Part shown: one piece after another, positions 1-32,000 of the stretch | Layout of the letters: the number at the start of each line of letters is the position of its first letter | Numbering within the stretch: the stretch's first letter is position 1 | NCBI RefSeq assembly: GCF_000039765.1 | Contig: NC_004460.2 | Span: 1,170,001 to 1,202,000 of the forward strand | DNA length: 32,000 bases | Source of the DNA: Vibrio vulnificus CMCP6 | Lineage (GTDB): Bacteria; Pseudomonadota; Gammaproteobacteria; Enterobacterales; Vibrionaceae | Direction of reading: 5' to 3' | Translations under genes and position numbers: made by a program | The notes under the pieces: model-generated | Databases searched by the model: none | What the model saw: the letters and a program-made list of their open reading frames with translations, nothing else | What the model was told of the DNA's origin: nothing

Positions 1-1476
1 GACATTGGCATGATGAAGCCAACCTTGAACGGCAACAGCATCACACCGCTCCACCCCATTCTCATTCTGGTGAAAAACAGGCGTTTGCACATGGCATTGA
101 TTGATCGCGGTGACGATGGGGCTTTGATGTTCAGAACGAATGCCAGCCCCCAGCGCCACAATGGCATCACCACAGAAAAACCACGATTTCAAACCCTGAG
201 TTTGCTGAACATCCAACTCAAAGCTGGCTATCCCCCATCGACCATTGCTGACGCCGCCAGTCCACTCGGTGTTTTGCTCGATGCGCCCCCATTCGTGCGC
301 GGGCATGGCCACGCTGGGTGAGGTAACCCCAGGGATTTTTGCCCAATCCCAGTAAGGATAAATATCGTGGTATTCGTCGCCCGTCACGCTGATGTTCATG
401 CTGCCAAAACCGAGCCAGAAACCAAGTAAGTTCTCTTGATTGCCCGTTTCAATCGGCTTGGTGCGGCGTGAATTGGTTTTCACCGTCACCGAAAAGCGAT
501 GGTTCACCATGGCAGAATAGTCTGAGCGCCAAAAGTGTTTAAATCCCGCAAAGGGATACGCACGGCCATCAAGGTGCGCGAGGTAACTTTCGAGTGGCAA
601 GCGATGTTGAGGAAACAGCGCCATCAGCATGGTCACTTGCACTTTCAAAGACGCGCGACTGTGCGGTTTCTCCAAATCGGGCTTGGCGATGGCTCGGCCA
701 CACACGTTGTAATCCCAGCGACCGGTACGCGTCATCCACATCGAACCTTGTAAGAAATAGCTGAGCAGTAAACGTTGCTGATCACTTGAAAAGCGAAAGC
801 AGGTGTCAGCCGCCGCATACACCCACGGCAAAGCGACATTTAGGAAAGATTCACCATAACCGCCGTTTTGTAATTGCGGCCCATGCTGTTGGTAAGAGAA
901 ATCGGCTTGTATGCCCTCCTCTTGCGTCAACACGATAGTGTCAGCGATATCGGCCATGGCTTGGGCAAAGCGAGTTTGATTGTTTTTAAGCAATGCACGA
1001 TACGCCACCCCATTCGCCAGATCGGCTTTGTTCGCCCCCGTCATGCTCGCTTGGGCGGGCAGATCATCCATCAATTTTTGCTGCAATGCTGGCGAGAGCG
1101 CATCGCTGAGCAGCAAAGCAATCGGCCCCAGAAGCCGCTGTTTGCCAATTTGATTCCACCACCAGTTCCAGTGGGTCGGATTGTGTCGATACCAGTGCGC
1201 CAACGCTTGTTCAATCGTTTCCAAAATCGAGGAACAAGGTCGTTGGTAGTGTTGGCAAGCGAGCAGCAATACGCGCTGCAAATAGGCAAAAATACGCTCT
1301 CCGTCTTGCTCAGCGTCTGCAAGCGGCGCATCGAGCCAGCCTGTTTGGCGAGAAAATGCGTTTTGGTATTGAGCGATGGTTTGATGCCAATCGTGCTCGT
1401 GCAGCATGCCCCTTTGTAGCTCGACGATGGATTGTGACAGTTTGCTGCGGATCTGCATCAAATGTTGCGAGTGCAT
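1..1476 (-). CDS. Polysaccharide lyase family 8 (chondroitin AC / hyaluronate lyase-like), N-terminal 492 codons. The 3' end lies beyond the left window edge. No signal peptide.
   Basis: The minus-strand frame is open from position 1 to the ATG. It is absent from the supplied ORF track because its stop is outside the window. My translation reads MHSQHLMQIRSKL...HWNWWWNQIGKQ...TGANKADL...QADFSYQQHGPQLQNGGYGESF...YNVCGRAIAK...FWRSDYS...NQENLLGFWLGFGSM. It is colinear with the 839-aa PL8 ORF at 29477..31996. It keeps the PL8 Asn (GAN), the His..Tyr (QQHG-x5-GGYG) and the Arg motifs. AAGGAG at 1494..1489 directly abuts ATG 1488, so ATG 1476 (12-nt spacing) is preferred, with 1488 as the alternative. 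Confidence 0.85.
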   Translation of the reverse strand, partial: MHSQHLMQIRSKLSQSIVELQRGMLHEHDWHQTIAQYQNAFSRQTGWLDAPLADAEQDGERIFAYLQRVLLLACQHYQRPCSSILETIEQALAHWYRHNPTHWNWWWNQIGKQRLLGPIALLLSDALSPALQQKLMDDLPAQASMTGANKADLANGVAYRALLKNNQTRFAQAMADIADTIVLTQEEGIQADFSYQQHGPQLQNGGYGESFLNVALPWVYAAADTCFRFSSDQQRLLLSYFLQGSMWMTRTGRWDYNVCGRAIAKPDLEKPHSRASLKVQVTMLMALFPQHRLPLESYLAHLDGRAYPFAGFKHFWRSDYSAMVNHRFSVTVKTNSRRTKPIETGNQENLLGFWLGFGSMNISVTGDEYHDIYPYWDWAKIPGVTSPSVAMPAHEWGRIEQNTEWTGGVSNGRWGIASFELDVQQTQGLKSWFFCGDAIVALGAGIRSEHQSPIVTAINQCHVQTPVFHQNENGVERCDAVAVQGWLHHANV

Positions 1477-1515
1477 GATGCGAATCATCTCCTTGGTGAG
1501 TCTATCGGAATGAAA

Positions 1516-1540
1516 AGAAGGTGCTTTGACAGCACCTTCT
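1516..1540 (-). terminator. Hairpin plus T-run downstream of the GH112 gene (rho-independent terminator or attenuator)
   Basis: A perfect 10-bp stem AGAAGGTGCT/AGCACCTTCT with a 5-nt loop. On the minus strand it is followed by TTTCATT. It lies 16 nt after the GH112 stop and only about 30 nt before the PL8 start. Confidence 0.6.
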
Positions 1541-1556
1541 ACCTTCTTTGCTTGGT

Positions 1557-29445: not shown

Positions 29446-29476
29446 CTTTTATCGAAATAAATCACTGAACCTGCGA

Positions 29477-31996
29477 CTACTGCGAGCGCGACAGAACCAG
29501 TTGTGGCGCTTGGGCACTTTCTCGACTGGAGAAACTGACATCAGATTTGCCACTGGCGCTACCAAGATTCTCAAGCACCAAACTCACAACCCCAGATTGC
29601 ATCAACGCGCTGATATCAAGCTCAACCCAGCGGTCTATATCTGCGGGGGTGATGCCAACGCTCGGACCCGTGGCCACGTTAGCGGGTAACGATGCCCAAC
29701 TGATGTTGGACTCGAGCCAGTCGCTGCTCGCCAAGCGTGAGACTGTCACCGTTCGCTCCACATCGCTATTGACATTACGCACATGCAATCGCAGCGTCGC
29801 GTTGGTGGTCGAGTCGATCCCTTGTCCACTCAGATCAAATTGCAGCACCGTTTTTCGGTTGTAACCCGTGCCGTCTTTCTTCACCACAAGATAACTGTTG
29901 CTGCCAAAAGATTGGCTGGCATATTGACCATCGCGGACAAACGCATCTTGTGAAACCATCACCGTTTGAGGAGGTGTAGGTAAGACAGGAGCGGAAAAGT
30001 CGACCAACACGCCCTTGCCCATCCATCTTGGCTCTGAAGACGTCTGCACTGTGGTGTGTTTACTCACTCCTCCCTTGTCAAAGCTCACTTGTACCTGTGT
30101 GCCTTGCCCTGGCGTTGATAAGGTCACGACCGGATCCGCGGCCGATTGATCAATCAGCACCACACTAGCTTGGCTGACCGACAAGGTCGAACCGTCGTGC
30201 AAATTGATACTCCCGGGTTGATGGAAAATCACGCCGGTGACGTTCAAACCTTGATGATGCACCGCCTGCAGAGTGTTGCTGTTACTCAGTACCGCGATCG
30301 GGGATTGCTGTGCGTAAGCCTCCACTTGAGATGCCGTTCGGTTCGGCACAATGATGTATTGATAACTGGCGTTTGTTGGCTGCCAACTGTGGCCAATTCT
30401 CAACATAAACACCTCATCGGACACCACTTCATTCGCCTGACCACGATTGATGTCGTACCAATTACCCGATTGGGTTTGGTTGTTCATATGCCCGTACCAG
30501 TACGCAGGGAAAACGTAGCCAATGCCGTCATGATGCACCCAAGACGCATTGACCAAGGCGCGACTGCCTTTTTCATACACCGCACCGTCGACCGTCACCG
30601 GTCCTTTTAATCGAGTTTGGTTGACCGATGTATTGACATACTCATTTCTCGTTGAGGCTATGCCAGCGCCTAGCGCCACCATTTCATCCTTGAAGCTAAA
30701 CCACGCTTTCTTCGCTTGCGTGCCATAGGCATTCATGTCCATCACTGCAACGCCATAACGACCATCAGAAACGCCGCCAACAAAGCTCGTGTTCATCACG
30801 ATGCTTCCCCAGTCGGCGGGTTTCTCCGCAAACTGAGGGGCAGTCACACCCGGAACCAAAGCCCAGTTCCACACGGGAAAGAGATTGTGGTACTCATCAC
30901 CTCTTTGCATGATAAACATGCTGCCAAAGCCGAGCCAATTGCCCAATAAGTTTTCATTGTTGCCCGCTTCCGTTGGCTCTATACGCAATGAGTTCATCTT
31001 TACGCCAATAAAGTGATTTTCCCCAACCTTGCTTGCATAGTCAGAGCGCCAAAATTGCTTAAAGCCTTCGAAACCAGCCCCCTCTCCTGCAACATGACGA
31101 CGAAACTGCTCCGCTTCCTGAGCACGTTGAGGTGACAAAGCGGCAATATACTGACTTTGCTGCTGCAACGTCGATTTGTCCACGACTTGAACACGACTGA
31201 TTCCTCGACCACGGGCGTTATAGTCTAACGTTCCGTGGCTGTTCATCCAACGGACCCCTTCCAAGAAATAATCGCTGAGCAGATCAATTTGCTCTGGAGA
31301 GAACTTCCATTGCAAATCTCGTACGTGATAAGCCCAAAATGACGCGGTATCAAAAAACACTTCCCCATAACCACCGGTATACAACTGTGCACCATGTTGT
31401 TGGAATGAGTAATCCGCTTGTACCCCTTCGGCTTCGGTGATCACTATGGTTTCCGCAATCCCCTCTAAACCACGCTGAACTTGCGCAGCATCATTCGCCA
31501 GCAAACCACCAAAAATGACCGCTTTGGAAAGATCGGTTCGATTGGCGCCCGTTTTGTACGGCGCACTCGGCATATCGCCTTGAATTAACGTTTTTAAATC
31601 ACTCGGCAGTGCACTGCCTAACATCAGCGCAGCAGGCCCCAAACGAAGTTGTTTACCAATCTCGTTCCACCACCAATTTTTATTGGTTCGATCGGCGGAA
31701 TACCAATAATACATCGCCTCAATCGCTGCTTGCGCGTAACCCGTTTGGGGAAACAAATGTTCGGCAGCGGCCAGCACTCGAATGCGATCTAAATGCTCTC
31801 GGATCGGCTTCTCATCCGTCGCCACGATCGTATAGTCGATGTCTGGCCAACTTCCGTCGGCCAACAAGGCATCGCGATACTGCGTTGCCAGCCCAGAAAG
31901 CGTCTGGCCCTTATTGTCTGCGTTGCGAGATGCTTGCTGGGCGAAATCTGGAGCAACGCGCTGTGATAAGGTCATCACTTCATTCGCCAGACTCAT
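29477..31996 (-). CDS. Polysaccharide lyase family 8 (chondroitin/hyaluronan lyase) with a ~170-aa C-terminal accessory (DNRLRE / CBM-like) domain. The 5' end may extend past the right window edge.
   Basis: PL8 motifs NKNWWWNEIGKQ, TGANRTDL, QADYSFQQHGAQLYTGGYGEVF, YNARGRGISR, FWRSDYAS. The C-terminal tail (about 29477..29983) reads DAFVRDGQYASQSFGSNSYLVVKK...RKTVLQFDLSG...ATLRLHV...SDWLESNISWASLP. The codon upstream of ATG 31996 is still open (CCT), and no signal peptide is visible in the window. Confidence 0.88.
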   Translation of the reverse strand: MSLANEVMTLSQRVAPDFAQQASRNADNKGQTLSGLATQYRDALLADGSWPDIDYTIVATDEKPIREHLDRIRVLAAAEHLFPQTGYAQAAIEAMYYWYSADRTNKNWWWNEIGKQLRLGPAALMLGSALPSDLKTLIQGDMPSAPYKTGANRTDLSKAVIFGGLLANDAAQVQRGLEGIAETIVITEAEGVQADYSFQQHGAQLYTGGYGEVFFDTASFWAYHVRDLQWKFSPEQIDLLSDYFLEGVRWMNSHGTLDYNARGRGISRVQVVDKSTLQQQSQYIAALSPQRAQEAEQFRRHVAGEGAGFEGFKQFWRSDYASKVGENHFIGVKMNSLRIEPTEAGNNENLLGNWLGFGSMFIMQRGDEYHNLFPVWNWALVPGVTAPQFAEKPADWGSIVMNTSFVGGVSDGRYGVAVMDMNAYGTQAKKAWFSFKDEMVALGAGIASTRNEYVNTSVNQTRLKGPVTVDGAVYEKGSRALVNASWVHHDGIGYVFPAYWYGHMNNQTQSGNWYDINRGQANEVVSDEVFMLRIGHSWQPTNASYQYIIVPNRTASQVEAYAQQSPIAVLSNSNTLQAVHHQGLNVTGVIFHQPGSINLHDGSTLSVSQASVVLIDQSAADPVVTLSTPGQGTQVQVSFDKGGVSKHTTVQTSSEPRWMGKGVLVDFSAPVLPTPPQTVMVSQDAFVRDGQYASQSFGSNSYLVVKKDGTGYNRKTVLQFDLSGQGIDSTTNATLRLHVRNVNSDVERTVTVSRLASSDWLESNISWASLPANVATGPSVGITPADIDRWVELDISALMQSGVVSLVLENLGSASGKSDVSFSSRESAQAPQLVLSRSQ

Positions 31997-32000
31997 AGGA

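Follow-up and report, generated by a model that had tools for sequence, protein, structure and literature searches.

We analyzed a stretch of 32,000 nucleotides from Vibrio vulnificus CMCP6 (contig NC_004460.2, positions 1,170,001 to 1,202,000; "the window" below is this stretch at its full length) and found it to be ~98% of the chromosome II genomic island known as region XII. The genes of the island are likely to form a two-compartment system for the utilization of chondroitin sulfate and hyaluronan, and the proposal of a first-pass annotation of this DNA, that it holds a glycosaminoglycan (GAG) locus from outside the Bacteroidetes, was borne out with V. vulnificus as the host. Gene order and functions agree with the published list of VV2_1096–VV2_1110 for "genomic island XII", whose content (a sulfatase cluster with its 'regulator', two chondroitinases, a Dpp/Opp ATP-binding cassette (ABC) system, a methyl-accepting chemotaxis protein (MCP), a sulfate permease and galET) is matched in the window. 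Exact-protein look-ups of the substrate-binding protein (SBP), sulfatase C and the GH112 enzyme returned V. vulnificus-type contigs, and the SBP is 100% identical to V. vulnificus chromosome II proteins, for example in record CP012740.1. Region XII was first described by Cohen et al. 2007 as a 33-kb island of chromosome II that is enriched in the clinical lineage, and its published parts include an arylsulfatase cluster, two chondroitinases, an 'oligopeptide' ABC system, a sulfate transporter and an extra galE/galT pair (PMC3091676, PMC3360785). According to published expression data, human serum upregulates the sulfatase cluster.

In the pathway that we propose, a secreted lyase of family PL8 with a CBM96 module would cut the polymer outside the cell, and the resulting sulfated unsaturated oligosaccharides would pass an OprD/ChiP-like porin. 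A family-5 SBP would bind the fragments and hand them to an Opp-type ABC importer, possibly signaling to the neighboring chemoreceptor as well. In the cytoplasm, a leaderless PL8 lyase would trim the oligosaccharides to disaccharides; three Cys-type sulfatases matured by an anaerobic sulfatase-maturating enzyme (anSME) would strip the sulfate (one of 4-O type, one of 6-O type and sulfatase A, whose type is not assigned); a DUF2264 dehydratase would turn saturated glucuronic acid (GlcA) ends into Δ4,5-uronate; and GH88 would free the uronate and GalNAc or GlcNAc. KduD, with KduI, KdgK and Eda encoded elsewhere, would lead the uronate into central metabolism, the SulP permease would dispose of or handle the freed sulfate, and GH112, GalT and GalE would use up Gal-β1,3-linked N-acetylhexosamine (HexNAc). 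The genes would be repressed by KdgR through its boxes and probably induced by uronate catabolites. Fragments longer than disaccharides would be imported, because otherwise neither a lyase in the cytoplasm nor a 4-O-sulfatase of endo type would make sense. The analysis establishes what the genes are, which of them have leaders and how far this is conserved, the state of the catalytic residues, and how enriched and conserved the operators are. We infer the substrates and fluxes from characterized homologues, and also infer the specificity of the transporter, which way SulP transports, the assignment of the boxes to KdgR and the link to chemotaxis. The corresponding activities have been shown by others on homologues (BT_3349, BT_3333, BcGDH, UGL, chondroitinase AC, SPH1118 and VV2_1091).

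Open reading frame (ORF) calls together with Pfam and NCBIfam profile searches gave 19 genes, and all genes named in the first-pass annotation were present at the expected places:

1–1476, minus strand: left PL8, chondroitin-AC-type lyase (Pfam Lyase_8_N and Lyase_8); residues 1–492 of 679 lie in the window and the C-terminus past its left edge
1557–3743, minus strand: GH112 β-1,3-galactosyl-N-acetylhexosamine phosphorylase, 728 aa, predicted cytoplasmic (TIGR02336 equivalog, 1327 bits)
3810–4979, minus strand: GH88 unsaturated glucuronyl hydrolase (UGL), leaderless (Pfam GH88)
5159–5920, minus strand: KduD, 2-dehydro-3-deoxy-D-gluconate 5-dehydrogenase (TIGR01832 equivalog, 425 bits against a cutoff of 339)
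6051–7112, minus strand: galT of the E. coli class, 353 aa (NCBIfam equivalog, 594 bits)
7129–8145, minus strand: galE (NCBIfam equivalog, 455 bits)
8148–9773, minus strand: SulP/STAS anion permease (Pfam Sulfate_transp and STAS; TIGR00815, 362 bits)
10914–12353, plus strand: OprD/ChiP-like outer-membrane porin (Pfam OprD, 49 bits; weak ChiP match, 97 bits)
12814–14760, minus strand: MCP (Pfam HAMP and MCPsignal)
14852–16552, minus strand: fused double ATPase of Opp/Dpp (PepT) type (Pfam)
16555–17715, minus strand: OppC-like permease (Pfam)
17718–18725, minus strand: OppB-like permease (Pfam)
19679–21598, minus strand: periplasmic family-5 SBP, 639 aa, with a classical signal peptide (Pfam SBP_bac_5)
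21666–23387, minus strand: DUF2264 protein, 573 aa, with an extra DUF2264_C domain, leaderless (Pfam PF10022, formerly GH154, 306 bits)
23588–25048, plus strand: sulfatase A, Cys-type (Pfam Sulfatase)
25071–26282, minus strand: anSME, radical SAM/SPASM (TIGR03942 equivalog, 502 bits against a cutoff of 349)
26444–27937, plus strand: sulfatase B, Cys-type, related to BT_3349 (Pfam Sulfatase)
27934–29400, plus strand: sulfatase C, Cys-type, S1_15-like (Pfam Sulfatase; PDB relatives)
29477–32000, minus strand: right PL8, chondroitin-AC-type lyase with a C-terminal CBM96 (Pfam Lyase_8_N, Lyase_8, Lyase_8_C and CBM96); residues 20–858 lie in the window

The division into two compartments is read from the N-termini. 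For each leaderless gene, the first in-frame stop upstream was located; it lies at 2, 2 and 3 codons for sulfatases A, B and C, and at 1, 8, 10 and 18 codons for DUF2264, GH88, the left PL8 and GH112, respectively. Neither the upstream stretches nor the N-termini of these genes contain a hydrophobic segment, a lipobox or a twin-arginine motif. Hidden leaders are excluded, because the in-frame stops close the frames 1–18 codons upstream and revision of the start codon cannot add one; the claim that the three sulfatases, GH88, DUF2264, GH112 and the left PL8 lack leaders therefore holds. The same leaderless starts recur in orthologues from ~12 other Vibrio species at 58–99% identity, among them V. 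floridensis, V. hepatarius, V. mimicus, V. metoecus, V. nigripulchritudo, V. penaeicida and V. plantisponsor. We thus predict that the sulfatases, GH88, DUF2264, GH112 and one of the PL8 lyases are cytoplasmic. With the desulfating enzymes in the cytoplasm, still-sulfated oligosaccharides would have to cross the inner membrane; this supports the earlier proposal of their import by an ABC system, the most plausible route being the family-5 SBP and its Opp-type transporter.

The two PL8 lyases appear to stand on opposite sides of this divide. The left one, 679 aa in the full gene of a public V. vulnificus record, has P. heparinus chondroitinase AC as its closest PDB entry (1CB8, 1.4e-89) and falls in a Vibrio-only clade of 665–692 aa proteins that start with MxSQHL and have neither leader nor CBM96; we predict it to be cytoplasmic. 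Public records give the right one 858 aa; the 57 nt past position 32000 encode residues 1–19, and its N-terminus, MKKTRFLLPFVFPALLAAPMSLA followed by NEV, is a classical signal peptide. The leader is kept in the orthologues, and the PL8-CBM96 clade retains signal peptides. The first-pass annotation saw signal peptides in the porin and the SBP alone, which is accordingly correct inside the window and fails just beyond its edge. The lyases are 37.5% identical to each other, and both align to 1CB8 and 1HM2 with the catalytic Asn, His, Tyr, Arg and Glu all conserved; we take these to be residues 175, 225, 234, 288 and 371 of P. heparinus chondroitinase AC. Because a signal peptide is encoded just off the window, the right PL8 is predicted to be a secreted depolymerase, and the design would therefore be to cleave outside, import, and cleave again and desulfate inside.

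The three sulfatases carry the Cys-type motifs CTPSR, CSPHR and CTPSR (A, B and C, respectively) and score 116–195 bits against PF00884. Their N-terminal metal-binding Asp lies at residue 9, 12 and 15, in agreement with the earlier observation that it falls within the first ~16 residues. Sulfatase B matches the endo-4-O-sulfatase of B. thetaiotaomicron (PDB 6S21) at 1.3e-166 and the chondroitin/dermatan sulfate 4-O-endosulfatase of Vibrio sp. FC509 (PDB 6J66) at 7.5e-83, and it is predicted to be a chondroitin GalNAc-4-O-sulfatase; for it and 6S21 we use S1_27 as a putative SulfAtlas label. Its Vibrionaceae relatives, with at least 57% identity, all start with MKKPNLLYVFPDQ or similar and have no leader. 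The nearest relatives outside Vibrio are lipoprotein-type enzymes of marine and gut Bacteroidota, 50–55% identical and with an N-terminus ~30 residues longer; a hydrophobic leader was found in 74 of the 89 Bacteroidota relatives, and many of these extensions end in a lipobox-like Cys. The pattern suggests an inter-phylum transfer accompanied by loss of the leader. A related 4-O-sulfatase of Photobacterium has also been reported to lack a signal peptide.

Sulfatase C, whose leaderless start is kept in 14 Vibrio loci, matches PDB 7OZE at 3.8e-158 and the GalNAc-6-O-sulfatase 6S20 at 8.6e-151, as well as 9BAS, named an S1_15A sulfatase, and we predict it to be a GalNAc/Gal-6-O-sulfatase. The stop of sulfatase B and the start of sulfatase C share 4 nt (27934–27937), and this overlap suggests that the 4-O and 6-O sulfatases are translationally coupled. 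For sulfatase A, the best PDB match is 6PT4 (2.7e-52), annotated as an exo-2S iota-carrageenan S1 sulfatase. Its family is leaderless throughout Vibrio, Fusobacteriota, Pasteurellaceae and Anaerococcus, and CxPxR stands at residues 42–54 in 114 of the 120 top homologues. Assignment of sulfatase A to S1_9 as a Δ4,5-hexuronate-2-O-sulfatase was rejected: by eye the signature motifs matched only partly, and the alignment with BT_1596 covered only the C-terminal half.

Downstream of desulfation, the uronate branch is represented by three enzymes. GH88 matches the Bacillus UGL (PDB 1VD5) at 5.9e-74 and the S. agalactiae UGL at 2.6e-63, and KduD is an equivalog-level call. The DUF2264 protein matches the β-D-glucuronic acid dehydratase BcGDH (PDB 9O4U) at 1.6e-14, with only 56 bits in phmmer. 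Its residues N153, N154, W155, F158, Y206, R258, Y262 and Y324 align with N176, N177, W178, F181, Y229, R285, Y289 and Y354 of BcGDH; E74 and R78 probably correspond to E60 and R64, a pairing read from the motif LExxxRxLxGxAP. In work by Alvarez et al. 2025 (PMC12269599), the family formerly called GH154 was shown to consist of β-D-glucuronate dehydratases, which make saturated GlcA ends ready for GH88. We found no papers naming 'DUF2264' in the searchable literature, and the link to GH154 and BcGDH came from the PDB match. The protein is predicted to be a β-D-glucuronate dehydratase that makes GH88 substrate from saturated non-reducing-end GlcA.

A galactose branch accompanies the uronate enzymes. 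VV2_1091 of V. vulnificus CMCP6 is a characterized lacto-N-biose phosphorylase (PMC8950772), and by organism and island we take the GH112 of the window to be this protein. The galE and galT of the island have been described as paralogues in an operon with the sulfate transporter (PMC3091676), and we read them as a second copy of the Leloir genes that would process the Gal-1-P released by GH112.

Among the transport proteins, the porin has a classical signal peptide (MQHRINLSLISTAVLAALTSGTAFA) and would serve as the oligosaccharide channel. The SBP matches SPH1118, the pectin-binding protein of Sphingomonas sp. A1 (PDB 7VER), at 4.5e-115 over its full length. SPH1118 is annotated as peptide-binding, binds pectin and unsaturated oligogalacturonate, and is needed for both chemotaxis and assimilation (PMC9314435). 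The three ABC proteins are 84–100% identical across the Vibrio loci, and the MCP gene lies downstream of the ABC operon in most of them. The N-terminal 320 aa of the MCP have no Pfam match, their ~265-aa periplasmic domain belonging to no known family. The SulP permease would act as an outlet for, or handler of, the sulfate freed in the cytoplasm. Terminator-like hairpins were seen near the porin gene (12379–12397) and just after the SBP gene (19622–19646).

More tentatively, the SBP may be dual-purpose, feeding the ABC importer and signaling to the adjacent chemoreceptor, and the importer may take any X-β1,3-HexNAc disaccharide, an idea we hold as possible though doubtful. Its range could then include sulfated or unsulfated unsaturated uronate-GalNAc (ΔUA-GalNAc(S)), ΔUA-GlcNAc, and lacto- and galacto-N-biose. 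If true, V. vulnificus would swim up gradients of GAG fragments made in host tissue by its own secreted lyase, and broad X-β1,3-HexNAc import would explain why GH112 is tied to uronate and sulfatase clusters in Vibrio and Fusobacteriota.

The intergenic DNA is strongly enriched in a KdgR-like pattern. With at most one mismatch, seven KdgR-like boxes (TRAAAYRNYRTTTYA) were found in the window, all intergenic, against 0.41 expected; dinucleotide-preserving shuffles of the intergenic DNA gave a mean of 0.21 and a maximum of 3 in 500 shuffles. The boxes lie in six intergenic regions and precede most transcription units, and they are positionally conserved in other species; one stands upstream of the secreted PL8, off the window. 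The boxes and the control regions that hold them are as follows:

5089–5103: KdgR-like box with 2 mismatches, 110 nt upstream of GH88 (unit GH88-GH112-PL8), gained at the 2-mismatch limit
10116–10130 and 10172–10186: two KdgR-like boxes in the sulP/porin intergenic region
10836–10850: KdgR-like box 64 nt upstream of the porin start
18868–18927, minus strand: 60-bp promoter/operator module upstream of oppB with a box at 18893–18907, a paralogue of the module upstream of DUF2264
23425–23570: divergent control region of DUF2264(-SBP) and sulfatase A with three KdgR-like boxes (23450, 23483 and 23556)
26332–26393: divergent control region of anSME and sulfatases B-C with two KdgR-like boxes (26332 and 26379)

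The core of the 60-bp module, AAATGAAAAAGCGTTTTAAAA ... GTTCTAAT, is invariant, is duplicated upstream of oppB and DUF2264 and is conserved across species. The box nearest to the sulP start (unit sulP-galE-galT) lies >340 nt upstream of it, and no box with at most two mismatches precedes kduD or the MCP gene. The island itself encodes no regulator gene; a kdgR gene is present in V. vulnificus, and expression of the island is probably repressed by this chromosomal KdgR. A scan for riboswitches and small RNAs with Rfam gave nothing at the gathering score, and the count from a sigma-70 promoter scan was not above chance.

Three of the spacers are unusual in other ways. The gap between SBP and oppB (18726–19678) is 953 bp of noncoding DNA with no ORF and no Rfam match, of which only ~60 bp (18868–18927) are kept in other species, the remainder being specific to V. 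vulnificus and V. floridensis. At the position of this gap, V. hepatarius DSM 19134 has a second SBP5 paralogue, 58% identical (14314–16185 of the stretch examined). We rejected the idea that the gap is a decayed second SBP gene, as tblastn found no similarity. The sulP–porin spacer (9774–10913), with three of the KdgR-like boxes, is 1.14 kb long and AT-rich (GC ~41% in 2-kb windows), unusually long for a divergent promoter region. The porin–MCP spacer (12354–12813) varies among V. vulnificus strains, some of which have ORF fragments of 65–149 aa with a TM_HPP domain, and in CP012740.1 an additional TetR-family gene is inserted there.

Reading both flanks in V. vulnificus records, we found that the island spans ~32.6 kb and that the two PL8 genes are its outermost genes. 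The first-pass expectation that the locus continues past both window edges was not borne out: beyond one PL8 lie DUF445, an AsnC-type regulator and putP/putA, and beyond the other an ABC exporter, DDAH and a ula-like (ascorbate-type) phosphotransferase system (PTS), genes unrelated to the locus, with no kduI or kdgK/kdgA adjacent. We rejected anomalous GC content as a sign of recent transfer: despite the variable presence of the island among strains there is no compositional sign of recent foreign origin, because its GC (0.498) equals that of the flanks (0.494–0.496).

Outside V. vulnificus, the order [GH88-GH112]-sulfatase C-sulfatase B-anSME-DUF2264-SBP-oppBCDF-MCP recurs as a core in many Vibrio species. 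In Vibrio metoecus OP3H, tblastn found only partial DUF2264 (residues 269–570), SBP (179–639) and OppC (119–386), and sulfatase B was absent; the locus may be decaying there, or the assembly may be poor. Beyond Vibrio, a 20-kb stretch of Pseudoleptotrichia goodfellowii (AP019822.1) holds a leaderless homologue of sulfatase A with DUF2264, KduI, a short-chain dehydrogenase/reductase (SDR) and a TauE anion exporter, and further two PfkB-family sugar kinases, an SSF symporter, a CUT1-type ABC system (SBP_bac_1), GH112, an IclR regulator and an Eda-type aldolase; here, too, genes for uronate and sulfatase functions accompany GH112. Mannheimia haemolytica has a trio of an SSF symporter, a leaderless homologue of sulfatase A and anSME (962–5571 of the stretch examined), which hints at a sulfated mono- or disaccharide, taken up by the cell, as the substrate of the sulfatase A family. 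The combination of a predicted cytoplasmic sulfatase, a uronate pathway, an importer and an anion exporter is thus one that recurs across phyla.

Published work on region XII (Cohen 2007; PMC3091676; PMC3360785) stays at the level of annotation and proposes sulfate scavenging or invasion; the localization of the enzymes, the dehydratase, the nature of the SBP, regulation and the pathway are not addressed in these descriptions. In the scavenging model of Gulig 2010 (PMC3091676) and Morrison 2012 (PMC3360785), credited there to Cohen 2007, arylsulfatases free sulfate from host molecules as a source of sulfur and SulP imports it. The upregulation of the sulfatase cluster in human serum and the presence of sulfate importers in the SulP family fit this model, but the sulfatases have no export signal, so the sulfate would be released inside and no importer would be needed. 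Furthermore, the island is rich in uronate carbon catabolism (GH88, the dehydratase and KduD), KdgR-like boxes are present, and two of the sulfatases match GAG-specific enzymes at E < 1e-150, and we consider sulfur scavenging improbable. We think equally little of the island as an invasion or virulence device, in which the secreted chondroitinase would break the host matrix for spread and the other genes mop up the products. The association with the clinical lineage, the carbohydrate-binding module of the secreted PL8 and the induction of the sulfatase cluster by serum speak for such a role; yet the same core is found in many non-pathogenic marine Vibrio species, 18 of the 19 genes have uptake or catabolic functions, and KdgR-type control is typical of nutrient catabolism. 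A role in virulence would also be compatible with the utilization of GAGs rather than exclusive of it.

The remaining explanations concern where desulfation takes place and what is desulfated. Sulfatases B and C have exported enzymes as their nearest structural homologues, and the leaderless enzymes could conceivably leave the cytoplasm by a non-classical route and desulfate in the periplasm, as in Bacteroides. This appears highly improbable, given the closed frames without Sec, lipoprotein or Tat motifs, the loss of the leader that defines the whole Vibrionaceae clade of sulfatase B, the leaderless sulfatase A family across phyla, the classically cytoplasmic GH88, GH112 and KduD encoded alongside, and the lack of extracellular sulfatase activity in Streptobacillus. 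Alternatively, the core may serve another substrate (sulfated mucin-type or β1,3-linked HexNAc disaccharides, or GAG oligosaccharides released by others), with the PL8 genes as a V. vulnificus add-on. GH112 acts on Gal-β1,3-HexNAc and recurs beside sulfatase A homologues in Pseudoleptotrichia, and family S1_15 reportedly also includes Gal-6S mucin sulfatases of the kind studied in B. thetaiotaomicron. On the other hand, both GH88 and the DUF2264 dehydratase need a substrate whose non-reducing end is a uronate, the nearest matches of sulfatase B are chondroitin 4-O-sulfatases, and in V. vulnificus two intact chondroitin-AC-type PL8 genes flank the core, the secreted one bearing the same operator. 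We therefore regard another substrate as rather unlikely.

Several observations nevertheless weigh against the utilization of chondroitin sulfate and hyaluronan as we propose it. In V. plantisponsor, Vibrio sp. Y2-5 and other Vibrio species, GH88-GH112 abut the conserved sulfatase/ABC core with no PL8 within 10 kb; the core may therefore act mainly on another uronate glycan or on oligosaccharides that others have released. The genes kduI, kdgK and eda and those for HexNAc catabolism are absent from the island and, in the window and its flanks, not adjacent to it. A terminator-like hairpin with a T-run (14796–14818) separates the ATPase gene from that of the MCP, which weakens the case for their co-transcription, and the MCP may be transcribed separately despite its conserved position. 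The leader calls come from closed reading frames and a hydrophobicity heuristic rather than from SignalP, and the box consensus is presumed to be of KdgR type, with KdgR as the putative binding factor. Finally, the searchable literature yielded neither a functional dissection of region XII nor a study of V. vulnificus growth on chondroitin.

Few genomic markers follow the clinical lineage of this highly lethal pathogen, and region XII is one of them; a concrete pathway turns this correlation into testable gene functions. A two-compartment system for chondroitin sulfate and hyaluronan would also be a Proteobacterial counter-example to the Bacteroides rule of periplasmic GAG desulfation; in it, a lipoprotein-type lineage of sulfatases would have lost its leader on appearing in Vibrionaceae, and the newly recognized glucuronate dehydratase family would extend to a cytoplasmic setting.

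Among known systems, the chondroitin sulfate/hyaluronan polysaccharide utilization locus (PUL) of B. thetaiotaomicron (BT_3349 and BT_3333), reportedly described by Ndeh et al. in 2020, shares many of the enzymes: sulfatase B resembles 6S21 and sulfatase C 6S20, and PL8, GH88 and maturation by anSME are common to both. The first-pass annotation had set the locus apart from the logic of Bacteroides PULs, and this distinction stands: Pfam found no SusC/SusD pair and no TonB-dependent transporter among the 19 gene products, and the Vibrio sulfatases are leaderless, whereas the Bacteroidota homologues have lipoprotein or Sec leaders and are periplasmic. In the BcGDH/GH88 cycle of B. caccae PUL25 (PMC12269599), which also belongs to a chondroitin pathway, GH88 works together with a DUF2264 protein that has the active-site residues of the Vibrio one. 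BcGDH, however, is a single domain of ~400 aa expressed from residue 24, in contrast to the Vibrio protein of 573 aa, which has a DUF2264_C domain like BT_3677 and is predicted to be cytoplasmic.

Other systems offer further partial parallels. The hyaluronan locus of Vibrio alginolyticus LWW-9 (PMC8222515) has two PL8 lyases, a cytoplasmic GH88 and uronate metabolism, but it imports by a PTS, both of its PL8 lyases have signal peptides (type I and type II), and it handles only unsulfated hyaluronan, with no sulfatases, ABC system or porin. SPH1118 (PMC7055323, PMC9314435) resembles the Vibrio SBP as a large family-5 protein with a 'peptide-binding' label and an acidic oligo- or polysaccharide as ligand; it binds pectin or oligogalacturonate, and no MCP or ABC system has been identified as its partner, whereas the Vibrio SBP adjoins both, in a context that points to GAG fragments. 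The galactose branch recalls the lnpABCD pathway of Bifidobacterium for galacto- and lacto-N-biose, in which GH112, GalT and GalE stand beside an ABC importer. Region XII differs in that its GalT is of the E. coli class, the module sits inside a uronate/sulfatase locus, and there is no NahK-type kinase, the Pfam scan finding neither an N-acetylhexosamine 1-kinase nor any other kinase among the 19 gene products.

A GAG cluster of similar logic is known from Streptobacillus moniliformis; it combines an extracellular lyase, an ABC importer served by a periplasmic SBP, and a predicted cytoplasmic sulfatase and GH88 (PMC5430744). Sulfatase A has close relatives in Leptotrichia, Pseudoleptotrichia and Oceanivirga, genera related to Streptobacillus. 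The transporter of region XII is of SBP_bac_5 and OppB/OppC type and not of the Smon0120–0123 type, Smon0123 being, as we take it, a family-1 (CUT1-type) SBP. Region XII also has a dedicated OprD-like porin, the outer-membrane channel of Streptobacillus being not known, and it adds three sulfatases with anSME, a cytoplasmic PL8 by prediction, DUF2264, an MCP, SulP and the GH112 branch; conversely, the Streptobacillus cluster has a full uronate pathway and region XII only KduD. In Streptobacillus, the ABC importer was shown to take unsaturated GAG disaccharides, both sulfated and unsulfated, the sulfatase and UGL were predicted to be cytoplasmic, and no extracellular sulfatase activity was found (Oiki et al. 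2017, PMC5430744). Since ABC import of sulfated fragments followed by cytoplasmic desulfation was already proposed in 2017 and the island has been known since 2007, we see region XII as a richer variant of that scheme in a known island.

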